DNA of 64,000 nt from Minisyncoccota bacterium (GTDB lineage: Bacteria; Patescibacteriota; Minisyncoccia; Phycocordibacterales; PALSA-1337), in contig JAGOQK010000003.1 of assembly GCA_017991475.1 (NCBI GenBank), positions 848 to 64,847 on the forward strand. Direction: 5' to 3'. The translations under genes and the position numbers were made by a program. The notes beneath the pieces were generated by a model that did no database searches, had not been told where the DNA came from, and saw only the letters and a program-made list of their open reading frames with translations. Shown here piece by piece: positions 31,329 through 47,112 of the stretch (its first letter is position 1; every line of letters starts with the position of its first letter).

Positions 31329-31383
31329 AGCAATAGTAGTAACAACTTGCGAAATTATGAGTTTTGATTTATAGTATGCACCT

Positions 31384-31518
31384 ATGTCATTCACCTATAA
31401 CCCAAACAAGCGCAAACGCGCAAAGTCGCACGGATTTCGCGTCCGCATGAAGACCGCTCCTGGCCGCAAGGTTCTTGCACGCCGTCGTGCAAAGGGTCGT
31501 TCACGCGTCGCCGTATAA
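31384..31518 (+). CDS. rpmH: 50S ribosomal protein L34
   Basis: 44-aa [47 protein letters not shown] (not in the 60-aa ORF track); canonical L34; followed by rnpA. Confidence 0.9.
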
Positions 31519-31521
31519 GCT

Positions 31522-31857
31522 ATGCTTTCTCGTTCTCAGAGAATCTCTGTTGAACAATTCAACTCCATCATGGAAAAAGGAAGGGTCTCCCACTCTTCCC
31601 TTTTTCTCATACGAGCAGTCTCAGGAAGAGACGACATTCGTATTGCTGCAGTGACACCCCAGAAAGTATTCAAAACCGCCGTTCTCCGCAATAGAGTGCG
31701 TCGCAGAATGTATGAAGCTATTCGATTTATAGCGATGAATATAAAACCCGGCACACAGGTCATCGTTTTTGCCAAGGCGGCAGCATCTGATAAGAAGCCG
31801 ATTGAGCTCGGGGCTGACATGAAAAATCTCTTTGTGAAAGCGGGTATTTTGGTGTAG
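31522..31857 (+). CDS. rnpA: RNase P protein component
   Basis: 111 aa basic protein directly after rpmH; FLIRAV...RNRVRRRMYEA motif. Confidence 0.85.
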   Translation: MLSRSQRISVEQFNSIMEKGRVSHSSLFLIRAVSGRDDIRIAAVTPQKVFKTAVLRNRVRRRMYEAIRFIAMNIKPGTQVIVFAKAAASDKKPIELGADMKNLFVKAGILV

Positions 31858-31858
31858 T

Positions 31859-32596
31859 ATGAGCTTTATGTACAATGAACTTATTTTTCGCCCCCTTTAT
31901 AACGGCCTTGTGGGTATCATGGACCTCGTGCCCTGGATCGATGTGGGCATCGCAGTTATCATATTTACGGTGATAGTTAAGCTCATACTCTACCCTCTTT
32001 CAAAATCCTCCCTTCTTACTCAAGTGAAAATGAAGGAGGTTGAGCCTGATGCCGCGAAGATTCGTGCTCAATATAGCTCTGATAAGCAGACCCAGGCACT
32101 CAAGATTATGGAGCTCTACAAGTCGCGAGGAGTCAAGCCTTTTGCGGGAATATTACTCGTGCTCATACAACTCCCTATCCTTTTTGCGATCATCTCCGTT
32201 TTCTATAAGATCATTCCAGAGATTCGTCCAGAATATCTCTATAGCTTCGTCTCCATTCCTGTGGTTAAGACACACTTCCTTGGTCTCATAGATCTCACAC
32301 AAAAGAGTCTTATATTGTCGTTGATTACCGCAGGAATCCAGTATTTTCAACTCAAGTATTCACTCGCTTCGCGCCCTACCGCTCCTTCAGATGCAAGTGA
32401 TACTGCAAGCCAGATATCGAACTCCATGAACAAGCAGATGAAATATTTGCTCCCTATTCTCGCCTTCGCGTCGACATATTGGCTCATCCCTGCCCAGTTC
32501 CCTCAGGCAGCAGCTATCATCGCGGTGTACTGGTCAGTAAGCACTCTGTTTACTCTCGGACAAGAGCTTTATATTCGCAAGAAACACATCAAGTAA
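31859..32596 (+). CDS. yidC: YidC/Oxa1-family membrane protein insertase (short form)
   Basis: 245 aa, 5 TM; conserved ...MELYKSRGVKPFAGILLVLIQLPILFAI... region; canonical position after rnpA. Confidence 0.85.
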   Translation: MSFMYNELIFRPLYNGLVGIMDLVPWIDVGIAVIIFTVIVKLILYPLSKSSLLTQVKMKEVEPDAAKIRAQYSSDKQTQALKIMELYKSRGVKPFAGILLVLIQLPILFAIISVFYKIIPEIRPEYLYSFVSIPVVKTHFLGLIDLTQKSLILSLITAGIQYFQLKYSLASRPTAPSDASDTASQISNSMNKQMKYLLPILAFASTYWLIPAQFPQAAAIIAVYWSVSTLFTLGQELYIRKKHIK

Positions 32597-32632: not shown

Positions 32633-33958
32633 CTAATTACTTGAAATCAAATCCAGAGACCATAACGATAAGTCATTCTTGTTCATGAAGAACAGAAAGT
32701 CGTCTTTTTGATCGAGTCCGAGGTTGAAGGCGTCAATGATGCGATTTGAAGTATCTATGATGGAAGATAGGAGTTTGATCTCTCCTGTCACACCATTGAT
32801 CTGCCATATCTTGTCGACCGTAGAAACAGTTCCCGCATACCAATCATCAGGATACACTCCATCTACCGGCTGTGCGGGCGTCGCACAGTAGACCATCTCC
32901 TTGTAGAAATTACCCCAAACGCACTTATCTGCAAGTGTCCTCACGATAGCATCTATCCCCTTTTTGTCAGCGACTGTATATACGCTGGTGAGCACATTCT
33001 TGTTACTGCCCGTGGTGGAGACGATGACACGCTTAGCATCAGAACTTACGCGCGTGCTTATACCTGCGAGTGGCCCGAGTATTTTGTTCCAGACGCCAGT
33101 CTTTGCATTGACGAAATAGAGGTATCCACCCTCAGTGGCAGTCCCCCTGGTAGTGAGAGCTATTGTATTCTCCTCTGGCCACTCGGCATTGAGTTGAGTG
33201 AGGGGTGTACTGAATATCTGAGTCACTGATTTACCGTCGAATGTAGAAACATACCCCGTACCCATCCCGTTCTCATTTACAAGCATGAAAAGTTTATCTT
33301 TCTTTGGCGATGCCGCGTAGGTGATGATGTTTTCAGGAAGATTCTTGCCCTTGAGCTCATATGGGGTGATTGTTTGACCATCGGCCCCTACACCGAGGCT
33401 TTGCGGAGGGGTGCTGCTTGCTGAGGTGCTCGTGGCGACTTTGGGAAGTATGCGAGCCTTGATATCTGCATAAACCGAGCTTATCGAGGTTTCCGCTTCG
33501 TCGAGGCTCGAGGCTATGAATGCGCTCGCATCCTTGTTCCACACACTCTGATATATCCTCGGTACGACGGTGTTCGATAGTGTCGTGACAGCGAGAGTGT
33601 CTCCCTTGGTTTCGTAGATATTGCCACGCCCACGATCCACCCAGCGGATGACTGTGGTACTAGCGGTCGTACTTGCAGCATATCCACCGACGGGGGTGGC
33701 GCTTAGGAGGCGAAGTGCAGGTATCTTGGCTGGAGTTGTGGTATCGGTAGTTGTTGAAGTCACAGGAGTAGTTCCACCACCGGCATTCTGCTGACCCCCA
33801 CCAGTTGGCGGTCTACCAAAAGGCTGAAATCCTCCCTGCTGGTCACCCGAATTCGACCCCTGCCCTGTCGTATCAGCCGGCATGCGCATGAAGAAATACC
33901 AATACGCCGCGCCAGCGATTATCAGAAGTATGAGGAGTATGGGGAGGATTTTTTTCAT
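32633..33958 (-). CDS. Secreted or anchored hypothetical protein (N-terminal TM, Thr/Gly-rich linker, large C-terminal domain)
   Basis: Last gene of the minus-strand block that contains the VirB4/VirB6-like genes. Confidence 0.45.
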   Translation of the reverse strand: MKKILPILLILLIIAGAAYWYFFMRMPADTTGQGSNSGDQQGGFQPFGRPPTGGGQQNAGGGTTPVTSTTTDTTTPAKIPALRLLSATPVGGYAASTTASTTVIRWVDRGRGNIYETKGDTLAVTTLSNTVVPRIYQSVWNKDASAFIASSLDEAETSISSVYADIKARILPKVATSTSASSTPPQSLGVGADGQTITPYELKGKNLPENIITYAASPKKDKLFMLVNENGMGTGYVSTFDGKSVTQIFSTPLTQLNAEWPEENTIALTTRGTATEGGYLYFVNAKTGVWNKILGPLAGISTRVSSDAKRVIVSTTGSNKNVLTSVYTVADKKGIDAIVRTLADKCVWGNFYKEMVYCATPAQPVDGVYPDDWYAGTVSTVDKIWQINGVTGEIKLLSSIIDTSNRIIDAFNLGLDQKDDFLFFMNKNDLSLWSLDLISSN

Positions 33959-33960
33959 AC

Positions 33961-35394
33961 TTAAAGAGTTAAACTTCCTGAGGGGGTGTCATACACGTTG
34001 GGAATAGGCTGAATTATTTTATCAGTACCATCTCCTTTGCCACCAAAAGCTTTTATTATTTCGTAGGCTTGCTCTTTGAACTTTGCTCGTGAATCAGGAT
34101 CCTTGATCGTTTTGTTTGCTTCAACTCTATTTATTTCCTCCTGTATATCAGATATTGCCCGGTTTGCGCTTTCTTGATTTACATCACGAGCAATACCTTT
34201 CCCGACGACAGAAGCAACGGCGGTGCCGGCAATATATCCTACACCCGCCCCAACTCCACCTCCAGTTCCCGCCCCAACAATAACAGCCCCACTCGCTATC
34301 GTGGCTTGCAGGGTCTCGATGGTGGCTATGCCATAAGGATTCCACGAAGTCGCATGTCCAATTGTTGAATAAATTTTAGACATTGACTTTGAATATGCAG
34401 CAAAATCCTGTAGTTCAGCTATAGATTGCGTCTGGCCATTTTCCTGCAATAGCCTCGTATATTTGGCGAGATGCTCATCGATTTTTTGTGCGCATTCAGC
34501 GGGCGACATCTTTGATTGGCCGCCGACTACATTGCCACAATCCTGCATTGCGATATTCATCATACCGACCCCTGTGTTCAACTCGATAGTTCCAGTAAGT
34601 TCCAATTCTTGGTTTTTATTATCAGTGATTTGAACACACAAATCCTCCTCCTCCGAGGTCAAATCAGTATCTGAACATCGATCCAAAATCTGCGCTTCAG
34701 ATGATACGCCAAGTATACCCTCGGCTTCTGAAATGAGAATAGCCCGTTCACTCCTCAAGGATTTAATAGATTCACCGAGTGCATTATTTGCGCGCCTCAG
34801 ATTGGTTACCCTATCTTTCAATGTTGCCATATCGCTCGCGAGCGTATCTGCGGCAGTCTTGGATAATTGACTGAAAAAACTAACTGTCGCACCCTTCTCA
34901 TATTTAATATCAAGCGGCTTTACAAGCGTCGAAGGGATATCAACAAGACGAGGATCTATGGTTCTCAGGATCAAATACGAACAGAGCACCAACAAAAGTC
35001 CCTGGAGTGCTTGGAAAATCATCTTTTTACCTTCATTTTTTCCCAGGAATGAGTCAGTGGTTACATACTTGAATCCTCCGGCGACAATAACGAGTACTGC
35101 GGCGACTGCAGAGAGGGCGATGATAAGGTTGAAGATGTAGCGCACATAGTCACCAAAATTCACCTTCTCTACCAGCGTGTTTTCTGCACATTTTTGAGTT
35201 CCGTCATTGAGACAAGGCAGGGGCTCTAGAAGCGTATAGGTTGCAACAGGATTGTCTTGAGGGTTGCTTGAAGTATTTGCGGCAGTGTCAGCATGAGTGA
35301 TCGAGGGGGTGACGAGCATGCCGACAGCGATGAAGATTGTAAAGACGGATCCTGCGATGGTTAATAATATGTTTTTGTTCATAGATGTATTCAT
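33961..35394 (-). CDS. VirB2/TrbC-like (signal peptide + two-TM hairpin) protein fused to a long coiled-coil/Gly-zipper C-terminal region
   Basis: Signal peptide, then TM pair (YIFNLIIALSAVAAVLVIVAGGF ... MIFQALQGLLLVLCSYLILRTI) as in T4SS pilins, then about 330 extra residues including GAGTGGGVGAGVGYIAGTAVASVVG. Confidence 0.4.
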   Translation of the reverse strand: MNTSMNKNILLTIAGSVFTIFIAVGMLVTPSITHADTAANTSSNPQDNPVATYTLLEPLPCLNDGTQKCAENTLVEKVNFGDYVRYIFNLIIALSAVAAVLVIVAGGFKYVTTDSFLGKNEGKKMIFQALQGLLLVLCSYLILRTIDPRLVDIPSTLVKPLDIKYEKGATVSFFSQLSKTAADTLASDMATLKDRVTNLRRANNALGESIKSLRSERAILISEAEGILGVSSEAQILDRCSDTDLTSEEEDLCVQITDNKNQELELTGTIELNTGVGMMNIAMQDCGNVVGGQSKMSPAECAQKIDEHLAKYTRLLQENGQTQSIAELQDFAAYSKSMSKIYSTIGHATSWNPYGIATIETLQATIASGAVIVGAGTGGGVGAGVGYIAGTAVASVVGKGIARDVNQESANRAISDIQEEINRVEANKTIKDPDSRAKFKEQAYEIIKAFGGKGDGTDKIIQPIPNVYDTPSGSLTL

Positions 35395-35401
35395 GGCTAT
35401 A

Positions 35402-36463
35402 TTAGAATGTTACTTCATTCTCTGTTGCTGTATCACCGCTGAATGATGCTGAAAATCCCCCGCTCGCACCTTGTAGAATCTTGTCAGTGTTTCTGATATC
35501 GAGGCGTATGTTGGATGTACCTGCAGATCCCTCGGGTGCGCGTAATACTACTGACTGACTTGATGAAAGCTCGGTACGCTTCACGCTGTTGATGAGCCAT
35601 GTCAGCGCGAGATTTCCGATACCATCTGCTGGTTTATTGAAGCCAAATGGTACCGCGAGCACAGAGGTCTCCTTTTCAGAACCAATGCGCACCGTATTTT
35701 TTACTGCTTTGTTAAAGAAAGTGCCATAGAGCGGGTCGGTAACATAGAAGCCTATTGAAGGACTTGTTGCAGCTATGGATATGCTCCCTTGGCCCTGTGC
35801 TGCACTATCGCGCGCAGCTACAGACACAGTCACATCGTAGGGTCGTGGGACGATATCTCCAGCGAGATAGATGGATTGTTTACCGTATCCTGACTGGTTT
35901 TGGAGCACTGTACTCCCTTTCTTCCACGTGTATACGAGTGTTTTCGGATCGTACTCTGTGCCACTCGCTGTGGCGAGATGTGGAACAGCGATTATTTTGA
36001 CTATATTCTGATAACGCGGCGATATCTTGCCCAAGAAAAGTGGATGAACATAACCATCAGATTCGACGAGCATGTCTATAGAGCTGGCTGTTATAGTGAT
36101 CGAATCAGACATACTCGTGCCGATAGTTGGACGAGCAGTTATCGAAACTACAAGCGACTTTCCGAGCTCAGGCGCAATGACTTTAACCGTTTTCAAACCG
36201 ACACCGCTCTGGACAGCTTTACCATTTATAGACCACGATACGGTAGACGAATCGATATCGATTGAATAACTCTTGAGGGTGATAGTTACTTCCTGTCCTG
36301 GGTATGGGTTGGGCGAAGATGTTTCGATGACGAGCCCGCTTATACCGGCTGGTATCGCTTGGGCGAATAGGTATGAGGTATGAGGTGTGAGGCATGAAGC
36401 AAAAAACACAAAACAAAATAGCAGTACTACTATGGATGAGAAATGAGAAAAACGAGAGTTCAT
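35402..36463 (-). CDS. Secreted hypothetical protein (signal peptide; beta-rich, Ig-like repeats likely)
   Basis: Start placed at MNSRFSHFSSIVVLLFCFVFFAS signal peptide; within the T4SS-like block. Confidence 0.5.
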   Translation of the reverse strand: MNSRFSHFSSIVVLLFCFVFFASCLTPHTSYLFAQAIPAGISGLVIETSSPNPYPGQEVTITLKSYSIDIDSSTVSWSINGKAVQSGVGLKTVKVIAPELGKSLVVSITARPTIGTSMSDSITITASSIDMLVESDGYVHPLFLGKISPRYQNIVKIIAVPHLATASGTEYDPKTLVYTWKKGSTVLQNQSGYGKQSIYLAGDIVPRPYDVTVSVAARDSAAQGQGSISIAATSPSIGFYVTDPLYGTFFNKAVKNTVRIGSEKETSVLAVPFGFNKPADGIGNLALTWLINSVKRTELSSSQSVVLRAPEGSAGTSNIRLDIRNTDKILQGASGGFSASFSGDTATENEVTF

Positions 36464-36518
36464 TGACTCTATTTTAGCAATATTATGAGCTATATGCGAT
36501 GAAAAATGTGTATAGGTA

Positions 36519-36953
36519 TCAGTTTTTGAGGCCCCCATTTGGAGGTCGAGTACCGCCCTGGTTCAAAGGTTGCTGTTTTTGGGCTGCTCTGCGCACACCT
36601 CCACTATTGAGGTGTGGTCCGCTAGATAGTGATCCCACAGAGATACCAGTTTTATCCTCGATACGAGTAGTGACCACTATGATAATCATAGCCAAAGTGA
36701 TGGTGGGAAGTGCTTGGATGGCAGGAATGATTTCAGCGATAGCGGAGACACCGCTTGCCGCCAGCCTTTTGCCATTCATGAATCCGAATCCAGACTTGAA
36801 CAAGTATATATTAATGAGGACCCAATAGGTTGGCCCCACAATGATGCCAACAATAGGTATGAGGGTCAGAAGGTCAGCAATGATAGCGGAACCTATAAGC
36901 AGAGCTGCTGCTTTGTTGCTGATACGATTTTTCTTGCCAGATTCTTGTTCCAT
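36519..36953 (-). CDS. Small polytopic membrane protein (3 TM) with Gly-rich C-terminus
   Basis: ORF in the T4SS-like block, directly downstream of hairpin D. Confidence 0.45.
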   Translation of the reverse strand: MEQESGKKNRISNKAAALLIGSAIIADLLTLIPIVGIIVGPTYWVLINIYLFKSGFGFMNGKRLAASGVSAIAEIIPAIQALPTITLAMIIIVVTTRIEDKTGISVGSLSSGPHLNSGGVRRAAQKQQPLNQGGTRPPNGGLKN

Positions 36954-36971
36954 AAGTTCATTATAGCAGAA

Positions 36972-37093
36972 GAGCCCTCATGTACGCGGTACGCATGTTT
37001 TGTGCATGTCATGTTTAGGATTGAACACTAGAAATAATGTTACCTACTAAGCATGACATGCACAAAACATGCGTACCGCGTACATGAGGGCTC
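36972..37093. repeat. Long perfect inverted repeat (42-bp arms, 38-nt loop), hairpin family member D, inside the T4SS-like gene block between the VirB4-like gene and the next gene
   Basis: GAGCCCTCATGTACGCGGTACGCATGTTTTGTGCATGTCATG ... CATGACATGCACAAAACATGCGTACCGCGTACATGAGGGCTC; loop TTTAGGATTGAACACTAGAAATAATGTTACCTACTAAG. Confidence 0.9.
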
Positions 37094-37104
37094 GTACCTC
37101 AATA

Positions 37105-38916
37105 TTACCCAGCCTGTTCCAGATCCTTCTTCGCCTGTTGAATACTCAAAACTTGAGCAGGATTGGTCGTGATGATCTGATCCTCGGTATATGATGCAAC
37201 GATCTTGATGGCGACGTGCTTGAGACCCACGAAGAATATACCCTCCCCCACATCTGATTCGAGCAAGAGGTACTTCTCTTCATCAGTCAGGTTAAATGTT
37301 TTCTGGATATGGTCGATGACTGTAGGAGACTGTTTGAGGAGTATTTGGATCGATGAGTTGGTTACGATAGGCAATCCATATGGTGAATTCAAGAAATCAT
37401 CCACGTCCTGGGTGATGGTAGCAAGTCCAAGGAAGTACTTGCGGCCGCGCTTGGCAAGGCTGAACAAGAATGAAGCTGTATCTTCAGACTTCATCATCCA
37501 CCACGCCTCGTCGATGACGAGCAGGCGCTTCTTGAGATTCTTGCGGATAGCATTCCAGATATAGTGAGTGACGATATACATAGCCACTGGCTTGAGTTCA
37601 TCTTCCATATCACGGAGCGAGAACACGGCAAATTTCTTGTTGATGTCGATGTTGGATGGCCTGTTGATGAAGCCTGACCATGTTCCTTTGGTGTACTTTG
37701 AGAGCCTCTGCACAAGCGATTCGCCGCCCTCCATTCCTGCAAGCACCAGCTCGAAGTCGGATAGGAGCGGTGGCTCAACGGTGCGGAAATCAGCCTCGGG
37801 CGTGATGTCTTTCAAGGCATAGGTCTCAGTGATGGCGCGATCGATGATAGCGTCTTCTTCTTGTGTGAGGCCTCCGAGCATGATGCGGAATAGTCCGACG
37901 AGGTTGATGATGTTCGAACGGAGTACATCAGCGCCAGATTCGTCCTCGCGTGGTATCGGGAGATCAAATGGGTTGATGTGGTGCTCAGAGTTGAGTGAGA
38001 TATTGAAGTACTTCCCTCCCGTAGCTTCTGCCATGTATTCGTACTCCTTCTCTGGATCGATGACGATAACATCCACATCGAACATGAGTGTTCGGAGGAT
38101 CTCAAGCTTAGTGTTGTAGGACTTTCCAGCACCGGCCACTGCGAATGTCACTGAGTTGTAGTTTTCAAGCGAGTAGCGATCAAAGAGAACAAGTGATGAG
38201 TTGTGACGATTGATACCGTAGAGGATACCCTTGTCTGAGGTGAGATCAAATGAAACGAATGGGAAAAGTGACGAGAGTGGCGAAGAGTTGAGCTTGGAGT
38301 GCACTGCGAGCTGGTCATCCGCGATAGGAATAACAGATTTGAATCCCTGCTCCTGCTGGAAGAGAGCTGGCTTCACATAGATGAGTTTGGATTCGAGGAT
38401 AGACTTGATCTCTGATTCGAGCTTATCGAGCTCGCCTTCGTTATCAGCGAATAGGGTGATATAAACACCGACGTCGAAGAGATGTTCCTGTGCCTGCATG
38501 AGTTGGTCGCGGAGCTGCTCGAGATCTTGGTATGCGGTATCGAGCGCTGGATCACGGACAAGGCCTTTCTCTTCCCTGTGTGAAATCTGACTTTGAACCT
38601 CAGCAACCTTCTTCTGGAAATGCCTCAAAATTTTTGCAGTATCGACGGGGTGTATGAATATCGAAATATTGAATATTTTGTCGAGATTGATGATCGGTGC
38701 AAACCAGCTCTCGTCAAGGAAGCGAGGGTATGAGATCACGAAAAGTGTGCGACCGACTTTCTCACCAAGATTGATCTCCTTTGGGCTTACCTTGAGTGCA
38801 GACGGCGAAATGACATCCTTGAGTTCTAGGACACCAGCCTGATAGATCTCTTCTGGCAGGATAGAGACAATAGGAGATGATTCTTTTTTGCCGAATAGTT
38901 TGTTGAGGAATGACAT
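37105..38916 (-). CDS. virB4: VirB4/TraC/CagE-family type IV secretion ATPase (Gram-positive-type, about 600 aa)
   Basis: Walker A SVTFAVAGAGKSYNTK, VIDPEKEYEYMAEATGGKYFNI, Walker B LLVIDEAWWMM, C-terminal LATITQDVDDF. Confidence 0.8.
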   Translation of the reverse strand: MSFLNKLFGKKESSPIVSILPEEIYQAGVLELKDVISPSALKVSPKEINLGEKVGRTLFVISYPRFLDESWFAPIINLDKIFNISIFIHPVDTAKILRHFQKKVAEVQSQISHREEKGLVRDPALDTAYQDLEQLRDQLMQAQEHLFDVGVYITLFADNEGELDKLESEIKSILESKLIYVKPALFQQEQGFKSVIPIADDQLAVHSKLNSSPLSSLFPFVSFDLTSDKGILYGINRHNSSLVLFDRYSLENYNSVTFAVAGAGKSYNTKLEILRTLMFDVDVIVIDPEKEYEYMAEATGGKYFNISLNSEHHINPFDLPIPREDESGADVLRSNIINLVGLFRIMLGGLTQEEDAIIDRAITETYALKDITPEADFRTVEPPLLSDFELVLAGMEGGESLVQRLSKYTKGTWSGFINRPSNIDINKKFAVFSLRDMEDELKPVAMYIVTHYIWNAIRKNLKKRLLVIDEAWWMMKSEDTASFLFSLAKRGRKYFLGLATITQDVDDFLNSPYGLPIVTNSSIQILLKQSPTVIDHIQKTFNLTDEEKYLLLESDVGEGIFFVGLKHVAIKIVASYTEDQIITTNPAQVLSIQQAKKDLEQAG

Positions 38917-38920
38917 AGTC

Positions 38921-39562
38921 TTATGTTATCTGTATCGGCTTCTCCGTTTCGCCTGGGTTAAACAGTTTATAGAACAATTCTACCACCTCTTCTGTCCCAA
39001 GCTCCGCTGCGCGGACACCACAACGTACGAGCCCTTGCTCTACCACGGCGACGCGCTGTTCGAGCTGGCTGCGGTATTCTTGGAACTTCGCATCAGTACT
39101 TTCCGCAGTCGCCTTACCTGCTCCCTTCCCCGGGAACATGCCTGCCAGAGGATTCTTGCCCCCACTCACGATCGGTGGATCGTACGGTATGACGACGAAG
39201 AAACTCTTGGACATGATGTTTGTGCTCTCGACGAAGGTTTTGATAAATTCGATGTACTCACGAACTTGGATCTTCATGAGCTCGGTGATCTGTTCCTTGT
39301 AGCGATCTTCGAGGAGGGCTATATACGGTCTGATGTCGAGTTTTTTTGATTGAACGAATATCTGTATAGAAAAATCGAGCGAGTTCACAAAATTCTGGAA
39401 TTGCATGAGGATAGAGCTCTGTTCATCCTGTGATTTGAGGGCGAAGTTGAGAGATGAGGCGAGCACGACCGCGCGCATGCCGCCATTTTTGAGAATAACG
39501 ACCCCGTCCCGAATCTCTTGAATCGGTATGAATCCTTGGGTTGTCGATTGTTTAGGAGCCAT
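38921..39562 (-). CDS. Hypothetical protein resembling the N-terminal domain of Gram-positive VirB4-like ATPases; a possible split VirB4 N-domain or accessory protein
   Basis: FIPIQEIRDGVVILKNGGMRAVVLASSLNFALKSQDEQSSILMQFQNFVNSL resembles N-termini of Tn916 Orf16 / PrgJ-type proteins as recalled; separated from virB4 by only 4 nt. Confidence 0.4.
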   Translation of the reverse strand: MAPKQSTTQGFIPIQEIRDGVVILKNGGMRAVVLASSLNFALKSQDEQSSILMQFQNFVNSLDFSIQIFVQSKKLDIRPYIALLEDRYKEQITELMKIQVREYIEFIKTFVESTNIMSKSFFVVIPYDPPIVSGGKNPLAGMFPGKGAGKATAESTDAKFQEYRSQLEQRVAVVEQGLVRCGVRAAELGTEEVVELFYKLFNPGETEKPIQIT

Positions 39563-39993
39563 TACTTTTGGTTTTTATTTGAATACATGCTCTCCTTGAT
39601 ATCGAGGCTCCAACTCAAGTCCTTGAGTTTGCTATCGGAAATTTTAGGAACCATAATCGAGGCGTAATTTTTGATATCAGCGACAGGAGACTTCTCGGTT
39701 TGTGCGACCTTGTCCTCCTTCTTCCAGATATAGAGCTTGCCCCCGAGCCAGTATTTGAATGCAGCTTCGACAATAGCGACGAATGGCTTGTTATTGATCC
39801 TGTAGAATGCGAGTGCCGCAGATATTGCCATGACGATAATGATAGGAACGATCGCCAACGTGAAGCTGCCCAAGAGCACATACAGCAAAAATGATAAGCC
39901 TCCCCCACCAGCGAGATATATGAACTGTTTCAGGGTGAGAGGACCAAAGATTTTGTCCTCAACCTCGATGAATTGGGGAACTTGATAGCGCAT
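39562..39993 (-). CDS. PrgI/VirB3-like small membrane protein
   Basis: 143 aa, N-terminal IEVEDKIFGPLTLKQFIYLAGGGG then two TM helices; sits immediately upstream of the VirB4-like genes as PrgI-family proteins do. Confidence 0.55.
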   Translation of the reverse strand: MRYQVPQFIEVEDKIFGPLTLKQFIYLAGGGGLSFLLYVLLGSFTLAIVPIIIVMAISAALAFYRINNKPFVAIVEAAFKYWLGGKLYIWKKEDKVAQTEKSPVADIKNYASIMVPKISDSKLKDLSWSLDIKESMYSNKNQK

Positions 39994-40049
39994 TACAGTA
40001 TATTATAACCCAATTACGCACATTTATATATGTGCAAATAGAATTCGTT

Positions 40050-40781
40050 TTAACTTACCATTTCCCTATAGGGGTCAGGTCCAGCTTTCTTGGGTTGTGG
40101 AGGTGGTGTCTTCGGGGTTTCTGGGGCTGTAGGTGTTTGTATGGGGCTTTGAGTAGTTCTTTGGGGAGCTGATGGTCGGGTCGGCACTGACTGTACAGGC
40201 GTCTCCAAGGGCGTTTCCTCGACTACAGGCAAATTGCTTGGAGCAGGCGCCTCATGATGAGGTTTGGGTGCGAGTTGCCCGACTGAATTCTGGAGAAGAT
40301 GATCAACGAGCGGCTCAGTGTGATTGTCTGAAGACGATTTTGAGTAGGCACCCTTCGGAACAGGTGGATTCTCTAGGTGTTCAAGTATCTGACTTCTATC
40401 TGCTGCACTTACCTTGGATTCAGTTGCAACCCTCTCTTTCTCAATACTGAAACCACCGACCTTTTCAATGTTTGCAACTGAGGCAGCATTCTCTTCTACT
40501 GTAGTTTGCGCCTGGATTTGTTCCTTGAGCGTCTGGAATACAGCCGCATTGACCTCGGCGACGATCTTCTCCGCGAGTCCCCGGTCGATCTCGAGGCGTT
40601 GCATGATGTGCTTGATGAAGTCTCCCGACTCGCTGACGCCATTGAGTATGTCGCGTATCTCAGCATCAAGTTCCCCTACTTGGTCGATGAGGAGGCCGAA
40701 TTTCGCGCCGATAGCTTCCGAACGGTCGTAGAGTTCGGCTGAGTCAGCGAGCTTTTTGAATTCTGGGGGTGTTTGGTGCAT
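40050..40781 (-). CDS. Hypothetical protein with Pro/Thr-rich C-terminal tail
   Basis: ORF only; in the T4SS-like block. Confidence 0.45.
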   Translation of the reverse strand: MHQTPPEFKKLADSAELYDRSEAIGAKFGLLIDQVGELDAEIRDILNGVSESGDFIKHIMQRLEIDRGLAEKIVAEVNAAVFQTLKEQIQAQTTVEENAASVANIEKVGGFSIEKERVATESKVSAADRSQILEHLENPPVPKGAYSKSSSDNHTEPLVDHLLQNSVGQLAPKPHHEAPAPSNLPVVEETPLETPVQSVPTRPSAPQRTTQSPIQTPTAPETPKTPPPQPKKAGPDPYREMVS

Positions 40782-40795
40782 GTGAGTAATAATAA

Positions 40796-42712
40796 TTAAG
40801 CAGGGTTATATGTTACTCCGTTTAAGGTTATACTTGCCTTGAGCCAATCACCATGGTTCTTAGGTTTACTCATCCAACCGAAGGCGCTGTGCTCACTGCC
40901 ACCAGAAGTCGTTTTCCAATCGAGAATACTTCTTGCAATAGCATCTTTTGTTTCCTTAGATACTTTACTGTCACCAATTTTCTTAAGACGATCGATGGAA
41001 AGATGTTCAAGTAGCCCTGGGTTTGCCAGCAATGATTCATCTTCGACAATACTGTCAATATCCATATCCTTTACCATCTGCTTGACGACCTCCTTGTCGC
41101 CCGTAGTCACTGCGCTTGAGAACGCATCCTTACGCGCGGTCTTGAGTGTGCTTATATCCTCAGGTTTGAAATCTTCCGATTTCTCAATAGCTTCAATGTC
41201 TGATTTTTGGAGATGCTTCATAACCTGAGGATTTTTCAAGACATCCTTCCCAAGAGCAAGCTTCTCGTCTTTGCTCATAAGTTTAATAATAGCCTTGTAT
41301 TCATCAGATGATTTAGAGTCGGAAGCGATAAGATTTTTGATTTGAGTTACCCTATCCATCTGTGTTTGCTTCTTTGCAACATCCTTCAGCTCCTTTCTGG
41401 TCTCATCATAACTTCGTGGACCCCCAAACTTACTCTTTGCAACTTGTCCTATTGTTGCAGAGCGAATATCTCTACCGAGCAGACTGTTGCCGATGCGAGT
41501 ATTGGAGAGGTATTTATCTGTTTTTGATGCCGCCATTCCAAAAGTTTTGCCACCTGCCCAACCGCTAACACCCTTCCAGATTGCTCCCGCCCCTACACCC
41601 TCTGCCCACTTTGGCATCATTGCTCCCACACTGATAGCCGCAAGAAGTGGCGCGTTGAGCATGATAATAACAATCGAGGCATTGATACCGAGGATCATGT
41701 AGTTCGCCCACCAGTACTCGCCTGCCGACTGATTCGTGGCAAATCCGGCTTGGAACAAGTTGCTTGAGGTCAGGATGCTCAACGCGAAATACATGAGCAA
41801 CAAATACACTGGCATGAAGAGGAGCTGACTCTTGTAGGTATCAGTCCATTTATTGGCGTATGTTTTTAGGTCAGGCACTGCGAATGACGCGAACCATATC
41901 GGGGAGAATCCAAGCAAGAGAAGCAACACAACGAAGCGTACGATGAAGGCAAGCGCTGCGAGGAAGAAGCTTGCTGCAGCGGTGAGCATGACGACGATGC
42001 CAAATACACCACCAAGGATAATCTGTGTGGATGCGTGAAAAGTTCCTGGTGTTCCCCCTGCCCCCGACGGATTGAGGGCCGCAGTTTTGGCATCATAGAA
42101 ATTGCTGATCTTGAGCGATTTCATGAATATGTCGGAGAGTCCGCCGTCTGCAAATCGTGTTTCGAGATTCGCACCATTCCCCACAAGCTGATCATAGTTG
42201 AGGTTACTTGCAGGCGCAATAGTGTTGTAGAGCTGCATCGATACTACATTTGAGACGTCGATACCGAGTCCTGCAGCGAAGAAACTGAAGTTTATGAGCA
42301 CTCCAGCGACTACGACCGTCTTGATGAGGTTTCCTGCGCTCGGTCCGGGGACGCCGATCGGTGCCAAGATCATCTTGAGTGCTGCGAAGACGAGGGTGAA
42401 TATGAGGAACATGCCGGATATGTCTCGTATCGATTTCCAAACCGCGTATATCGCTGGAGTACCTTCAAGGAACTCTTTGATGTTGAGTGTCAGGTTTATC
42501 GACATATTGAGCAGCGATCCGGCAAGCGCGAGGATCCAGGCGGATATGGTCAGAAGGTTGTTGACGATTTCGGCGAAGAATCCAGTGACGAAGTCATGGA
42601 AGGTATATCCGAAGAGTGGTGCGTCTGCTGCCTGCGCCACATGCCCAAATCCTCCCACGAGTATCGTGATGAGGATGAGAGTTGCTGTTATGTGAGGCAA
42701 GTAGCGTTTCAT
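40796..42712 (-). CDS. VirB6/TrbL-like polytopic inner-membrane protein with C-terminal charged cytoplasmic extension
   Basis: Signal peptide plus about 8 TM helices across the first 400 aa, then a long K/D/E-rich tail; size and topology match T4SS VirB6-like channel proteins; adjacent to PrgI and VirB4. Confidence 0.55.
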   Translation of the reverse strand: MKRYLPHITATLILITILVGGFGHVAQAADAPLFGYTFHDFVTGFFAEIVNNLLTISAWILALAGSLLNMSINLTLNIKEFLEGTPAIYAVWKSIRDISGMFLIFTLVFAALKMILAPIGVPGPSAGNLIKTVVVAGVLINFSFFAAGLGIDVSNVVSMQLYNTIAPASNLNYDQLVGNGANLETRFADGGLSDIFMKSLKISNFYDAKTAALNPSGAGGTPGTFHASTQIILGGVFGIVVMLTAAASFFLAALAFIVRFVVLLLLLGFSPIWFASFAVPDLKTYANKWTDTYKSQLLFMPVYLLLMYFALSILTSSNLFQAGFATNQSAGEYWWANYMILGINASIVIIMLNAPLLAAISVGAMMPKWAEGVGAGAIWKGVSGWAGGKTFGMAASKTDKYLSNTRIGNSLLGRDIRSATIGQVAKSKFGGPRSYDETRKELKDVAKKQTQMDRVTQIKNLIASDSKSSDEYKAIIKLMSKDEKLALGKDVLKNPQVMKHLQKSDIEAIEKSEDFKPEDISTLKTARKDAFSSAVTTGDKEVVKQMVKDMDIDSIVEDESLLANPGLLEHLSIDRLKKIGDSKVSKETKDAIARSILDWKTTSGGSEHSAFGWMSKPKNHGDWLKASITLNGVTYNPA

Positions 42713-42733
42713 GAATCTATAGGGGTTGAATGA

Positions 42734-44344
42734 TTATCGTGAGGATGAGTTGGCAGAGCTTTTGAGCGAGCGGCAGATATTCATGTATTGTTCAGCGCTT
42801 GTGTTGAACTGAGCTGCCTTCGCCTGTGCCTCAGCGAGATCGGTTGCGCCATTATCCCTCCCCTGCTGTATTCCCGGCAGGTTGGAAGCGATGAATTCCT
42901 GAAGCTGGTTCGATGCTTCTTGGGCGCTCTGCGCGTCCGAGATATTCTGGGCAGATCGGATGCGAGATCCGATCAGGCTGATAGTTGTATTGGCAGCATC
43001 GCGCTTGGTGCTGTATACCAGCGCAGCGGGCGCGACTTGGTTGATGAGGATCACCTGAATTGCATCGGCGTTACGCTGGGCTTCGCTTATCGCCGAAGAT
43101 CGTGTTCCTGTGACGGTGATATCCTGGAAACACCCTTGTGCGATAGAGAAATTGCTGCGGGCTGTGTCGAACGCGCTGACTGCTTGCTGATAAGTAGCAG
43201 CGACTGATTGGGCCTCGCTCAGGTAAGTAGCATAGCTCGACTGGACGTTCTGCGCAGAGTTCGAGTATGCACCCGCTCCTCTTGACTGCGCATTGAGCTG
43301 ATCAATATATGACTGTGTCTGCCCTCCTGTTCTTCGGGTGGTTCCTCCGAGACCCTGTGTGAAGACTTGCGATATGAGCTGCGCGAACAGGGCGCTCGAG
43401 ATCTCGTTGATAGAGTCTGCGAGGTTGAGTTGGTCGACACTCGAACCCAAACTCTTATTGAGACCTGCACCAATGACTGAACCAGGAGTCTGCACTGAAC
43501 AAGTTTTGTATTCCATGTATCCCGTTTCCTCGTCTCTGACCGCTTTGTATTTCGATCCATTCGCGGAGGTTACGCTGCCGGTATTGTTGAGCTGTACGAG
43601 ATCTCTCTGATCGAGGCCGAGACTTGCTCCACCTGTTCCATTGGCGTCGACTACTGCGGTAGTACAGTTTTCCCACGACAAGAATCCTTGCCCCCTATTG
43701 AGATCATTGTTAACTTTTTGTTCCTTTCCGAATATCTGTGCTTCGAGATCACTCTTGGCTTGAAGGTATGATCCGTATGGATTGTTCTGCGGTTCGCTGG
43801 TCATAGCTATGAATGCTGGCCACCCTCCTTGTGAAAAGTCGCCCGAGGTGAATCCCTCGATGCTGTAGCCGTTGATGCTCGCATTCTGCGCGTTGCCGAT
43901 GATTGTTTCGAGTGTACAGCGGTACCGTTCGCTCATAGAGCTCGTTTGGCCGAGGGCAAGGGAGAGTCTAAGGTCGATATTCCAGGGCGAACAGAGATTT
44001 TGAAGCGGGCCCACATTTGCGATGAAGTTGCCCGTGATCTCATCACCAAGGTCGAGGAAGAATGCCTCCGGGTTGTCGATGAATGCAGGACTTCCCTCGA
44101 ATCCCGTGTTGATCCAGTTGACGATGCTCGTTGTGAGTTGCTGGAGAGTCATTTTAGCGACATTCCATGCGAGCGAGTTGAGCACGAAGTCCTTGGTTTG
44201 CTGCTGGATGCTATGCCAGTTGAAAAGTGTGTCTATCGGCACCGCCCCAACAGCATGGGCTCTCGACGGCGCAAGAGTCGCCCCGGAAATAGCGAAGATG
44301 CCAACAATGAGTGCGAGAGTGGTTTTTGAAATTCGAGTATTCAT
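42734..44344 (-). CDS. Large secreted hypothetical protein (signal peptide, Gln/Ser/Ala-rich C-terminal half)
   Basis: Signal peptide MNTRISKTTLALIVGIFAISGATLAPSRAHA; no known domain recognised. Confidence 0.5.
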   Translation of the reverse strand: MNTRISKTTLALIVGIFAISGATLAPSRAHAVGAVPIDTLFNWHSIQQQTKDFVLNSLAWNVAKMTLQQLTTSIVNWINTGFEGSPAFIDNPEAFFLDLGDEITGNFIANVGPLQNLCSPWNIDLRLSLALGQTSSMSERYRCTLETIIGNAQNASINGYSIEGFTSGDFSQGGWPAFIAMTSEPQNNPYGSYLQAKSDLEAQIFGKEQKVNNDLNRGQGFLSWENCTTAVVDANGTGGASLGLDQRDLVQLNNTGSVTSANGSKYKAVRDEETGYMEYKTCSVQTPGSVIGAGLNKSLGSSVDQLNLADSINEISSALFAQLISQVFTQGLGGTTRRTGGQTQSYIDQLNAQSRGAGAYSNSAQNVQSSYATYLSEAQSVAATYQQAVSAFDTARSNFSIAQGCFQDITVTGTRSSAISEAQRNADAIQVILINQVAPAALVYSTKRDAANTTISLIGSRIRSAQNISDAQSAQEASNQLQEFIASNLPGIQQGRDNGATDLAEAQAKAAQFNTSAEQYMNICRSLKSSANSSSR

Positions 44345-44349
44345 AGTTT

Positions 44350-45273
44350 TTATTGTAATTGTGAAAAGAGTGATCCAGGCTCTGTTGACGCAAAGGCGAT
44401 TCCCGCTAAGGCGAAGTATGACTTTATGCTCTTGAGCGAAGTTAGAAGATTGCTTTGGATGGCAGTATATGCGCTTACTGATACCATCGTCTGCATCGGA
44501 TCATGTTCGACGCCCCGAATATCACGAGAAATTTTTGCCATACCAGATACTGCATTTAGAAGATCTACATGATAGGGAGCGAGAGGTTGTGGGACAGGCG
44601 TACCCTTGAGCTGGGTCGCTATCGTCTCGTATGAAGATACTACAGGGTCAATCTGCATGAGAAGCTTCATGTCCCCCTTTTCCAATGCGTCATTTGCGAT
44701 GACGGCTGGATCGGCGTCGACTCCGTATGTCGAAAATGTAAATCCGACAGCATTTCCATACTCCTTGACGTTGGTCGCGGTAGCTTCTGCGATGATTGAA
44801 ATATCAGCCACGGTAAATGCCTTGGGTTGTTCTGCTGCGCGCGCAGCGTTGTATATCGATTGATTCAATGTGTCTGTAACGAACGGCTGGTTCTCGATGA
44901 GATTGCTCTGCTTGAGCTGTATATAGCGAGCGAAGAAATCCCTGCCGAATTGATCAGTGAGGGTCAAATCTTCTAACGATGTTGATGGTACGGCAGTGCG
45001 GGTAGGTGCGGCTGGCTTCTCAAGAAAACTCAACCTCCAATCAGTCGTAGATGCTGAGGTCTCGTTTGTTTTTTGCGTAGAAACAACATCGATGGAACTC
45101 GCTGGGATCGATCCGGACGATGCTTTCTCGGTGGGTTGACCTGACTTTGCGTATATAAATACGCCTCCAACGGCCAGGACGCACAGTATCGCAATCAAGG
45201 CAGTCTGTTTGTGAGGGTAATAGCTCGCCATATCACTACAAGTATAGCAGAAAATCAATAGATTCTCGGCCAT
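44350..45273 (-). CDS. Membrane-anchored hypothetical protein
   Basis: Single N-terminal TM (ALIAILCVLAVGGVFIY), extracellular remainder. Confidence 0.45.
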   Translation of the reverse strand: MAENLLIFCYTCSDMASYYPHKQTALIAILCVLAVGGVFIYAKSGQPTEKASSGSIPASSIDVVSTQKTNETSASTTDWRLSFLEKPAAPTRTAVPSTSLEDLTLTDQFGRDFFARYIQLKQSNLIENQPFVTDTLNQSIYNAARAAEQPKAFTVADISIIAEATATNVKEYGNAVGFTFSTYGVDADPAVIANDALEKGDMKLLMQIDPVVSSYETIATQLKGTPVPQPLAPYHVDLLNAVSGMAKISRDIRGVEHDPMQTMVSVSAYTAIQSNLLTSLKSIKSYFALAGIAFASTEPGSLFSQLQ

Positions 45274-45297
45274 ATCTGTGGACAGGCAGCATTATTT

Positions 45298-46269
45298 CTA
45301 CTTCGATGTTCCGATCTGGGTGATGGTTCCGCTCGGACTACCTTCCGCAGTACAGTCTTCACCATGATATACCAGACATGTCCCCCCTGAAGTGTAGTTT
45401 CCGAGTACATTTTGACCAACACCGTTGATATTCGCTTCTCGATAAAGCATGCTAGCACCGGGTTGGAAGATGAGAGAGATCGGCTGTCCGCGGACATCCT
45501 CGATATCGAGCATGCTCGATGCGCTGCAGGTACATTGGGTCACGCGGCTTACACGACCGCCGAACTCCATGAGCGCTCCTCCACCCCCTCCACCAAATCC
45601 AGGGATACCACCTCCGCCGCTACTTCCGCCCGCTCCAGGCAGGAAGTTTCCGAGCGTAGCCCCTGTTGTTCCGTTAGGGCTCATACCATAGAGGATGTCA
45701 TATACTTGCTGGCCGACATCGCCGAGGAGTTGTGTCCAACCAAGACCACTTATATAACCGAAAACTTCCTTGTCGAGCTCTCGAAATGTCATGTCATCAC
45801 CCTGTGCCGAAGGTTGAGTTGTGGTGCGAGTACTCGTCGAATAGGTGTATACGGGCTGATAGTACGCACCATTTGAATAAATAGGAACCGAAACACCTCC
45901 TGAATCTATGCTATAAGTTGTTGGTGTAGTTCGCTCAGGAACCGACGGTATATTGAAAGTTTGAGTCGGCGTGTTTGTATAGAATGATGACTGGACGGCG
46001 GGGGCTGAGTTGATAATCTCAGGTTCCCTGGGTTTTTCAATGGGGGTTTCGAGTGTTGGAATATAAGTGTAAGGATCTTCGGGCGCGCGCGTATCGACCA
46101 CGCGATCTACAGGGCGGTCAAATGGAGAGAATGTTGCATCGTCGAGCGCGATTTGGGGGGTGGTTTCTTGTGGTCTGAGCCAGTAGAGGAGGAATGCAGC
46201 AGTGAGCAGGATCAAGAGAAGGATGAGTATGGTGGCAATAAGTTTTTTGTGTCCTTCTTCTTGATTCAT
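45298..46269 (-). CDS. Membrane-anchored hypothetical protein with Thr/Pro-rich region and Gly-rich stretch
   Basis: N-terminal TM (LIATILILLLILLTAAFLLY); first gene of the minus-strand block. Confidence 0.45.
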   Translation of the reverse strand: MNQEEGHKKLIATILILLLILLTAAFLLYWLRPQETTPQIALDDATFSPFDRPVDRVVDTRAPEDPYTYIPTLETPIEKPREPEIINSAPAVQSSFYTNTPTQTFNIPSVPERTTPTTYSIDSGGVSVPIYSNGAYYQPVYTYSTSTRTTTQPSAQGDDMTFRELDKEVFGYISGLGWTQLLGDVGQQVYDILYGMSPNGTTGATLGNFLPGAGGSSGGGGIPGFGGGGGGALMEFGGRVSRVTQCTCSASSMLDIEDVRGQPISLIFQPGASMLYREANINGVGQNVLGNYTSGGTCLVYHGEDCTAEGSPSGTITQIGTSK

Positions 46270-46290
46270 ACTCTAATATTCTATCATGAA

Positions 46291-47112
46291 TTAAGGCTTA
46301 GCTTTAAGCTGTGCGGTGATATCTATCCAATTTTCTATAGTCATATCCTCAGCACGAATCTTGGGGTTGAGACTGATTGCGGCCCAAACAGCTGTGGCTT
46401 CTTCTGGTGTAAGCACAGCCTCGATGTTCCTGAGTGCAAATTTCCTCTTATGTGCAAATCCTGCTTTAACTATCGAGAAAAATCTTGATATCTCGACATG
46501 TTTCTCAGAGAAAAGACGATCAGAAATATTTGTGATTGAAAGTATTGCCGAGTCAACCGTTGGTGGAGGAGTAAATGCTCCCGGTGGGACTTTGGCGACA
46601 AGTTTTGGTGTACCAAAGGCTTTTACTGATACCGACAAGATACTCTCCTTTCCATCACGAGTAACGATTCGTTCAGCGACTTCTTTTTGCACAAGTAGCA
46701 CCATTTTGTCAGGTCGTGGACCATGTTCGAGGAACTTCTCGAGGATTGCACCGGTGATGTAATACGGAATGTTCGCTATGATGGAAAAAGAATTCGGCAA
46801 CAGCGAATATGGCGCGGCCGCAAGCATTTCAGGTTCCATCTCGAGAATATCCCCCTCGACCAGATTTAATTTCCCCGCGGATATTTTTTCTATGAATGTT
46901 TCTTTGAGGAGTGCGATCGCACGAGTATCTTTTTCGACCGCCACTACATTCACGCCGACAGCTAATAGTGCACGTGTCAGAACACCAGTACCAGGGCCAA
47001 TCTCAAGTACAGTATCCCCTTCTTTGAGGTTTGCCGCAGCGATAATCTGCTCAAGTACATGAGCAGAATTGAGAAAGTGTTGGCCGAGAGATTTTTTTGC
47101 GAATAATTTCAT
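46291..47112 (-). CDS. rsmA: 16S rRNA (adenine1518/1519-N6)-dimethyltransferase RsmA/KsgA
   Basis: LGQHFL, VLEIGPGTGVLT SAM motif, NIPYYIT motif. Confidence 0.9.
   Translation of the reverse strand: MKLFAKKSLGQHFLNSAHVLEQIIAAANLKEGDTVLEIGPGTGVLTRALLAVGVNVVAVEKDTRAIALLKETFIEKISAGKLNLVEGDILEMEPEMLAAAPYSLLPNSFSIIANIPYYITGAILEKFLEHGPRPDKMVLLVQKEVAERIVTRDGKESILSVSVKAFGTPKLVAKVPPGAFTPPPTVDSAILSITNISDRLFSEKHVEISRFFSIVKAGFAHKRKFALRNIEAVLTPEEATAVWAAISLNPKIRAEDMTIENWIDITAQLKAKP

Follow-up and report, generated by a model that had tools for sequence, protein, structure and literature searches.

The epibiotic growth of Southlakia epibionticum depends on an essential gene cluster, SEML1_0005-0019, which resembles the conjugative type IV secretion systems (T4SSs) of Gram positive bacteria, with pilins and without recognisable coupling or relaxase proteins, and for which Wang and colleagues put forward protein export as one option (Wang et al. 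2023, PMC10633639). In a survey of 3,035 genomes, Quinonero-Coronel and colleagues found that the VirB4 ATPases of Patescibacteria form a monophyletic clade nested in MPF_FATA, that TrsD, PrgI, VirB6 and VirB2-like proteins are encoded near virB4, and that relaxases are almost absent; in Paceibacteria the T4SS lies close to dnaA, dnaN, rnpA, ksgA and rpmH (Quinonero-Coronel et al. 2025, PMC12102498). A 2025 review treats the patescibacterial systems as a new T4SS branch (PMC12857230), and a 2026 preprint reports tubular structures at the parasite-host interface, possibly T4SS pili, together with the acquisition of host RNA (10.64898/2026.06.21.733656). The current study concerns a locus homologous to the Southlakia cluster in a Minisyncoccota bacterium (GenBank assembly GCA_017991475.1). 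It consists of 12 tightly spaced minus-strand open reading frames (ORFs) at 32633-46269 of a 64-kb stretch of contig JAGOQK010000003.1 (64,000 nucleotides, positions 848 to 64,847 of the forward strand; hereafter the window), located between yidC and ksgA and near dnaA. The genes are named g1 (first upstream) to g12 (last downstream; Table 1).

We propose that this block is a chromosomal, vertically inherited T4SS of the Patescibacteria clade in a genome of the Paceibacteria (Parcubacteria) type, derived from monoderm MPF_FATA conjugation systems and without their DNA-processing half, which was either lost or never present, and that it likely assembles a pilus for host contact independently of a type IV coupling protein (T4CP). 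We consider this reading probable. The block encodes VirB2, VirB3, a split VirB4 and probably VirB6, and has no T4CP, relaxase or outer-membrane parts.

The VirB4 motor and its membrane partners

The ATPase g8 matches the NCBIfam model conju_CD1110 at 365.8 bits (cut-off 325, E 4.5e-109) over profile positions 180-733 of 752. It also matches other VirB4/TraC models of NCBIfam, Pfam P-loop_TraG (9e-25) and AAA_10 and, in the PDB, the VirB4 C-terminal domain 4AG5 (9e-39) and TrwK. The residues that define its Walker A (259-AVAGAGKS) and Walker B (465-LLVIDE) motifs, i.e. A..G.GKS and LLV.DE, are kept in 41/41 aligned VirB4 sequences. The HerA central domain (DUF87) is matched at residues 258-320 only and at 2e-6, compared with 4.5e-109 for the CD1110 VirB4, and the Pfam and NCBIfam matches of g8 include no FtsK or T4CP model. 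An FtsK/HerA identity fails, because the DUF87 match is short and weak, and g8 falls with VirB4. We scanned one genome per GTDB species for relatives and obtained 80 loci, with flanks of about 10 kb, in which VirB4 is 77-99% identical to g8; these include Taylorbacteria, Zambryskibacteria, Campbellbacteria, Nomurabacteria and other Paceibacteria. The best 120 g8-matching clusters listed (91-100% identity) are Patescibacteria, Paceibacterota or Parcubacteria wherever they are named, and g8 is 100% identical to the VirB4 of a metagenome-assembled genome labelled 'Candidatus Pacebacteria bacterium'. The best plasmid matches, at 27-37% identity, are from Bacillota and Actinomycetota and are mostly annotated as CD1110 family or DUF87. 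Placed by best matches, g8 belongs with the VirB4s of Patescibacteria and, beyond the phylum, with the monoderm MPF_FATA VirB4s.

The NCBIfam matches of the adjacent protein g7 identify it as a TrsD-like N-terminal domain of VirB4: they are to VirB4 Mbov_0397 (profile 100-233, 3.5e-10), TrsD (13-142, 2.3e-5) and CD1110 VirB4 (2-105, 8e-5), all under the whole-family cut-offs. On a 783-aa full-length clostridial VirB4, the g7 family profile covers residues 21-193 and g8 covers residues 208-755; because g7 and g8 tile the full-length protein, VirB4 is split in two polypeptides in this system. The split is also present in Southlakia, in a Pontibacillus megaplasmid (see below) and in 79/79 related loci with a g7 orthologue, and is therefore no sequencing frameshift. 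On the same grounds, we rejected a frameshifted pseudogene as the explanation for g7 and g8.

The small membrane protein g6, encoded two genes upstream of virB4, matches the Pfam family PrgI (PF12666) at 50 bits (cut-off 27, E 4.3e-13), and its family profile recovers the PrgI of a clostridial plasmid (4e-4) and its counterpart in Pontibacillus (2e-9). The polytopic protein g4 has 8 hydrophobic segments and sits upstream of PrgI, as does a 779-aa polytopic protein in Pontibacillus. The two were aligned by hhalign over 50 columns (37% probability, E 3.5e-4); hmmsearch gave no match between them. The only recurrent Pfam family among g4 orthologues is TrbL/VirB6 (PF04610), found in 2/32 and 6/71 of them with a best E of 1e-5. 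The window copy itself has no family match and the g4 profile has none among PDB sequences, and 7476 cluster representatives match g4 at E<=1e-3. Taken by sequence, g4 is probably VirB6-like.

The pilin candidate is g11, in which a signal peptide is followed by two hydrophobic transmembrane (TM) helices within a pilin domain at about residues 50-150. The window copy scores 17 bits against T4SS_pilin (PF18895), under the cut-off of 26.6; this family is found in 34/36 g11 orthologues (best 2.6e-9), which range in length from 106 to 628 aa. The g11 family profile also matches two pilin-like proteins of Pontibacillus (2e-9 and 3e-10), one annotated as Mbov_0395 family and the other its unannotated neighbour. 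With a hidden Markov model (HMM) of the pilin domain, g11 is the sole matching ORF of the window, and exactly one such ORF is present in 60/63 related loci. A VirB2-like pilin gene near virB4 is the trait that sets the patescibacterial systems apart. A second pilin had been considered in g9 and was dropped, as the pilin-domain HMM matches g11 alone in the window.

An earlier preliminary description of this locus, made by a model from the sequence alone, had proposed a Gram-positive-type T4SS. The CD1110 VirB4, PrgI, the TrsD-like domain and the pilin support this MPF_FATA-like assignment, the last three being the neighbours of the ATPase that are recognised as T4SS components. The VirB4/TraC ATPase with clear Walker motifs is borne out by the above-threshold conju_CD1110 match, 4AG5 and the motifs, and the VirB2-like fusion protein holds at the level of the family, the window copy being under the cut-off. 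The PrgI-like two-TM protein was correctly identified from its family (PF12666 above cut-off); it is encoded two genes upstream of VirB4, with g7 in between. For the VirB6-like polytopic protein the topology of 8 segments stands, whereas the family similarity is weak (PF04610 in 8/103 orthologues, no PDB match). The 213-aa g7 had been counted among the unknown proteins, and this does not survive the profile tiling and the TrsD match.

Conservation of the block beside the replication origin

The DNA-processing genes of conjugative systems were searched for at several levels. Pfam models applied to the large ORFs of the window identified no VirD4/T4CP and no relaxase. When the VirD4, relaxase and MobC of a clostridial system served as phmmer queries, none of the window ORFs of at least 40 aa matched. 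Neither the window nor the 10 kb to either side of virB4 in the 80 related loci yielded a VirD4/T4CP, a relaxase, MobC or an SLT hydrolase. The earlier statement that no VirD4-type coupling ATPase or relaxase is in view is thus confirmed for the window by both searches and extends to the related loci.

Synteny and identity were counted in the 42 of the 80 loci that have full flanks. The order uvrD-ksgA-[g1...g12]-yidC-rnpA-dnaA-dnaN is kept in 42/42 of them, across several orders, so that the block is conserved in related genomes and its origin-adjacent location right after yidC, as first described from the window genes, is a general feature of these loci. The genes g4, g6, g7, g10 and g12 were detected in 42/42 loci and g3 and g8 in 41-42/42; tblastn detected g11 in 36/42, g2 in 29/42 and g5 in 14/42, and g1, g5 and g9 diverge too fast for this method. 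VirB4 identity exceeds DnaA identity in 42/42 genome comparisons, with medians of 81% for VirB4, 63% for g7, 59% for DnaA, 56% for PrgI and 49% for DnaN. The extracytoplasmic proteins of the block have a median identity of about 30%. In GC content, the block (0.45-0.52) matches its flanks (0.37-0.51), and its borders are not marked by a step. The invariant flanks, the conservation of VirB4 above that of DnaA and the matching GC content therefore indicate that the block is a vertically inherited core machine and no mobile element.

Our ORF check returned the same coordinates and gene count, 12 minus-strand ORFs, as the preliminary description. Intergenic spacing in the block is -1 to 56 nt, the stop of g6 overlapping the start of g7 by 1 nt, with the exception of the 151 nt between g8 and g9. 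The end of g12 and yidC are convergent and separated by 36 nt. At the other end, 21 nt separate ksgA from g1, uvrD and ksgA overlap by 1 nt, and both are co-directional with the block, with which they are possibly co-transcribed. Promoter and terminator scans gave counts at or below shuffle expectation and are uninformative, and an Rfam scan found 3 tRNAs only, none within the block. In the local gene order, a PBP1A gene (+) precedes dnaN. Up to about 28 kb the GC skew is negative, at 36-56 kb it is positive, and the sign changes around 28-36 kb; oriC is therefore expected near dnaA/rnpA. Since a scan for DnaA boxes showed no enrichment (12 matches, 14.6 expected), oriC is located by GC skew and gene order only.

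Table 1 Features of the block and of its surroundings in the window.
Feature	Coordinates	Strand	Description
g1	45298..46269	-	323 aa; N-terminal TM anchor, Pro/Thr-rich linker, Gly-rich and Cys-containing C-terminal domain of ~100 aa
g2	44350..45273	-	307 aa; bitopic, N-terminal TM anchor and extracytoplasmic domain without family
g3	42734..44344	-	536 aa; signal/anchor, conserved Cys/Trp/Gly-rich N-terminal domain, predicted C-terminal three-helix bundle of ~175 residues
g4	40796..42712	-	638 aa; polytopic membrane protein, hydrophilic C-terminal tail of ~250 aa; VirB6-like candidate
g5	40050..40781	-	243 aa; soluble, TM-free; helical N-terminal part, Pro-rich C-terminal tail
g6	39562..39993	-	143 aa; PrgI/VirB3-family two-TM protein
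g7	38921..39562	-	213 aa; detached VirB4 N-terminal domain (TrsD-like), by profile matches
g8	37105..38916	-	603 aa; VirB4 ATPase, middle and C-terminal motor domains
g9	36519..36953	-	144 aa; small membrane protein, 2-3 TM segments
g10	35402..36538	-	378 aa as longest ORF, probable start at 36463 (353 aa); N-terminal anchor and probable Ig-like beta domains
g11	33961..35394	-	477 aa; signal peptide, VirB2-type pilin domain, variable C-terminal extension of ~330 aa
g12	32633..33958	-	441 aa; TM anchor, disordered Gly/Gln/Thr-rich linker, predicted seven-bladed beta-propeller, extracytoplasmic
ksgA/rsmA and uvrD/pcrA	46291..49247	-	housekeeping; Pfam RrnaAD 1e-52, UvrD-helicase 1e-87
dnaN (-), dnaA (-), rnpA (+), yidC (+)	28443..32596	mixed	origin-region genes by translations and Pfam
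dnaA	29777..31123	-	
PilB/T2SSE-type ATPase	20394..22067	+	type IV pilus or type II secretion
LysM-M23 protein	49546..50616	+	secreted; two LysM and one Peptidase_M23 domain
ComM-like ATPase	50629..52161		Mg-chelatase ATPase
697-aa ORF	52632..54725	-	no Pfam match at E<=0.001
PNPase	54753..56954		
Tyrosine recombinase	60597..61583	+	Phage_integrase and SAM-like N domain; probably XerC/D-like

Several further observations concern the surroundings of the block. The 16.6-kb unit of uvrD, ksgA and the T4SS genes (32633-49247, minus strand) would be on the lagging-strand template and head-on to replication, an arrangement relative to the origin that is kept in 42/42 related loci; orientation relative to replication is not addressed by the published gene-dosage idea. 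The nearest wall hydrolase is the secreted LysM-M23 protein, 3.3 kb beyond the block past uvrD, which is a candidate VirB1-type wall hydrolase. The 697-aa ORF lies between the ComM-like ATPase gene and the PNPase gene. The tyrosine recombinase gene is 14 kb off the block and shows no link to the T4SS. The PilB/T2SSE-type ATPase is encoded 12 kb from the block; besides the T4SS, the type IV pilus is the envelope machine that Saccharibacteria are known to require.

Related systems and the extracytoplasmic proteins

The system is most readily compared with that of Southlakia, which has a short VirB4 after a TrsD-like protein, PrgI and a large polytopic VirB6-like protein in the identical order. 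The two also have in common clustered VirB2-type pilin genes (one or several), the absence of an adjacent relaxase or coupling protein, the chromosomal location beside dnaA and a distal Ig-like exported protein. They differ in their pilins, which are six small ones in an array in Southlakia and a single one here, with a fused extension of 330 aa, in the length of PrgI (143 aa here, 300 aa in Southlakia) and in the accessory set (g12, g3, g1/g2), and this block contains no lysozyme-like or peptidase gene. The MPF_FATA systems of Firmicutes (CD1110/CD1115, Clostridium perfringens pSXP-169_2 and Prg/Pcf of pCF10) likewise have a CD1110-family VirB4 with the PrgI family upstream, and the absence of outer-membrane components in our block fits a monoderm architecture, as in these systems. 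In the canonical conjugative system of pSXP-169_2, however, the genes for MobC, a relaxase and VirD4 immediately precede those for PrgI and a full-length 783-aa VirB4; this system also has an SLT hydrolase and lacks a pilin. Our block instead has a split VirB4 and a VirB2-type pilin, and no DNA-processing genes.

The closest VirB4 that we found outside the Candidate Phyla Radiation (34% identity, E 4e-125) is encoded on the megaplasmid NZ_CP062975.1 of Pontibacillus sp. ALD_SL1 (L081:7489-17042). The cluster contains, in order, two pilin-like proteins, the 779-aa polytopic protein, a PrgI-like protein, a TrsD-like protein (30% identical to g7, 2e-28), a short VirB4 and then an M23 hydrolase (1050 aa), and we group the Mbov_0395/0397 family of a Mycoplasma integrative and conjugative element with it as a related system. 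Because the same core order is present in Pontibacillus, the architecture of split VirB4 and pilin is not unique to Patescibacteria. In contrast to the block studied here, the two Pontibacillus pilins are small and extension-free, the megaplasmid cluster is next to flagellar genes, and it has no counterparts of g1-g3, g10 and g12. Its annotation shows neither a relaxase nor a T4CP over 12 kb around it. The Pontibacillus cluster may represent another monoderm T4SS that bears pilins and is not conjugative. A separate TrsD, related to the VirB4 N-terminus and next to the VirB4 homologue, is also known from the Trs systems (TrsC-TrsD-TrsE) of pGO1/pSK41 (PMC12102498). The g7 match to TrsD reaches 24 bits against a cut-off of 200, and Trs differs in being plasmid-borne and conjugative, with a relaxase and a coupling protein. 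The Bordetella Ptl and Brucella VirB systems offer a functional analogy, in that they need no VirD4-type coupling protein (PMC12857230); they are diderm MPF_T systems with VirB7, VirB9, VirB10 and VirB11, and the sequence relationship is to VirB4 alone.

The remaining genes of the block encode proteins for which families are lacking. Five of them, g1, g2, g3, g10 and g12, are predicted to lie outside the cytoplasm, each with a single hydrophobic segment at its N-terminus. In g1 (TM segment 10-28) neither Pfam nor NCBIfam gave a match, and the orthologue set is also without a recurrent Pfam family. A jackhmmer search showed that its C-terminal domain recurs in 28 related loci, mostly in small proteins of about 110-180 aa that are often encoded on the opposite strand and that lie, in the loci with mapped gene order, at the ksgA-proximal block end; examples of this nameless family are L054:3035-3469 and L036:2520-2882. 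For g2 (TM segment 24-42) there was no Pfam match and no PDB sequence match, and bacterial TSP3 Ca-binding repeats are present in 14/42 of its orthologues. The C-terminus of g3 is predicted to form a long three-helix bundle, and the g3 profile had no meaningful match among PDB sequences; g3 is a tentative candidate for a VirB5-type protein of the pilus tip or base. The orthologues of g10, of about 344 aa, include weak matches to Ig-type Pfam families (among 43: BiPBP_C in 5, Ig_3 in 5, PKD_3 in 2), and g10 therefore probably carries Ig-like beta domains, although its profile matched no PDB sequence. The AF2 model of g12 (mean pLDDT 84) comprises a helix at 4-24, a disordered stretch at 29-74 and a beta domain at 82-436, which in a Foldseek search of the PDB resembled generic propellers (oligogalacturonate lyase 3pe7, TolB 7mx5, tricorn and WD40; E about 1e-10, TM-score 0.4-0.5) and no functional family. 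A Pfam domain was found in none of 120 g12 homologues, and the PDB sequence search gave no meaningful match. The model suggests that g12 is a membrane-tethered seven-bladed beta-propeller. The two other proteins are of a different kind: g9 is poorly conserved in sequence and has TM segments at 17-35 and 75-93, and g5 has no TM segment and is probably cytoplasmic; neither matches Pfam or NCBIfam, and no Pfam family recurs among the orthologues of either. The absence of Pfam and PDB sequence matches for g1-g3, g10 and g12 agrees with the original description of the accessory proteins as lineage-specific and without family. That description had also grouped g5 with the membrane and secreted proteins, which is corrected here, and had spoken of very large secreted proteins, which turn out to be 536 aa (g3) and 441 aa (g12) only.

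Proposed pilus assembly and the alternatives

In well-studied T4SSs, the subset of VirB2, VirB3, VirB4 and VirB6 builds the pilus, with VirB4 acting as the pilin dislocase and VirD4 being dispensable; the VirD4-independent assembly of the T-pilus in Agrobacterium is a precedent. Since the gene set of the block corresponds to this subset, with g4 as the probable VirB6, we suggest that the machine is primarily a T4CP-independent assembler of a pilus or channel. The core genes g4, g6, g7 and g8 are encoded in that order with near-zero spacing. In the mechanism we propose, PrgI (g6) would dock the VirB4 hexamer onto the VirB6-like platform (g4), and ATP hydrolysis by VirB4 would drive the removal of the g11 pilin domain from the membrane and its polymerisation into a short tube or fibre, in a step that would be independent of a coupling protein. 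The g12 propeller, the Ig-like g10 and the helical bundle of g3 would form the wall-spanning or host-contact part, and the whole machine would serve a contact-dependent interaction with the host cell on which the reduced-genome bacterium depends.

Several points weigh against this reading. The VirB6 homology of g4 is weak, the PF04610 matches in 8/103 orthologues being under the Pfam threshold. The g11 pilin has a 330-aa C-terminal extension, which puts its compatibility with polymerisation in question, and no VirB8-, VirB5- or VirB1-like protein is recognised within the block. The roles proposed for g1-g3, g10 and g12 follow from topology and fold class. The 64 kb inspected are part of a genome that may encode a VirD4-like protein elsewhere, as the majority of Patescibacteria genomes do, usually at a great distance from virB4 (PMC12102498). 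The essentiality of the system is known only for one Saccharimonadia species, with differing accessory genes (PMC10633639).

Of the alternatives, the idea that the pilus or channel is a feeding conduit, which imports host macromolecules (RNA, nucleotides, lipids, proteins) and thus works by uptake instead of secretion, is a tentative possibility that we rate well below T4CP-independent pilus assembly. Patescibacteria lack nucleotide, amino-acid and lipid synthesis (PMC10633639), the 2026 preprint describes host-RNA acquisition and tubules that extend to the host envelope and notes that VirB4 and PNPase are monophyletic within the phylum (10.64898/2026.06.21.733656), the extreme conservation of VirB4 would fit a core physiological role, and a PNPase gene lies 8.5 kb from the block. 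However, the sequence holds no sign of the direction of transport, the importing relatives ComB and Ced are not specifically similar (the CedB model matches g8 at residues 431-508 only, about 80 residues, with 33.6 bits against a cut-off of 700), and the preprint itself regards the uptake mechanism as unresolved. The absence of a nearby coupling protein in the window and the 80 loci would suit an exporter of the Bordetella Ptl/Brucella VirB kind, delivering Sec-exported effectors or toxins to the host or the medium. Several Sec-type secreted proteins are encoded within the operon, T4CP-less precedents exist (PMC12857230) and export is an option of Wang and colleagues (PMC10633639), but we find this doubtful: no effector domain (toxin or enzyme) is recognised in any of the 12 proteins, and the co-encoded secreted proteins are syntenic and structural-looking (propeller, Ig-like, helical bundle), unlike variable cargo.

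A machine for DNA uptake or competence, such as Helicobacter ComB or Ced of Sulfolobales, was among the options of the preliminary description. The window does encode a ComM-like ATPase and a PilB ATPase, and the T4SS of ABY1-class genomes adjoins comF, recG and radA (PMC12102498). This is nevertheless improbable, as there is no specific similarity to CedB or ComB and, in Southlakia, competence needs type IV pili and ComEC, the deletion of comEC abolishing transformation and not viability, whereas the T4SS is essential (PMC12857230). Finally, the block could in principle belong to an integrated conjugative element as its transfer module, with the relaxase and the coupling protein encoded beyond the window. 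This VirB4 family was defined on conjugative elements, and the tyrosine recombinase gene is present in the window; against this, the same housekeeping genes flank the block in all 42 genomes of several orders, VirB4 diverges more slowly than DnaA with no compositional break, and no relaxase, T4CP or MobC is present across the 80 loci, whereas the canonical comparator has those genes adjacent to a full-length VirB4. Relaxases number just 109 in the 3,035 surveyed genomes (PMC12102498). We regard conjugation as effectively excluded. The non-conjugative role favoured from the outset is thus supported by the missing T4CP and relaxase, the invariant flanks and the likeness to the published systems.

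The kind of system described here is already known from publications of 2023-2025, and the locus is no new kind of system; the interpretation in the preliminary description is a rediscovery, because the same conclusions, the non-conjugative role among them, had been published (PMC10633639, PMC12102498, PMC12857230). A more far-reaching view would be that the Paceibacteria-specific set of g12, g10, g3, g1 and g2, together with the extended single pilin, is a previously undescribed host-piercing module, a feeding tube that sits on a split-VirB4 motor lacking a T4CP, works in reverse and takes up RNA or other material from the host cytoplasm. Such a module would account for the slower evolution of VirB4 relative to DnaA, and we consider it unlikely. 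What the locus does provide is a clean Paceibacteria example of the system, with a split VirB4, a single fused pilin gene, a VirB4 under stronger constraint than DnaA and a set of family-less extracytoplasmic proteins. Patescibacteria represent a large part of bacterial diversity, and the means by which they exploit their hosts are still an open question; the T4SS is one of a small number of envelope machines that this lifestyle is known to require, as shown in one cultivated species. In the Paceibacteria examined here, its core ATPase is more strongly constrained than the replication initiator DnaA, and the five conserved, family-less extracytoplasmic proteins encoded with it are the obvious candidates for host contact.

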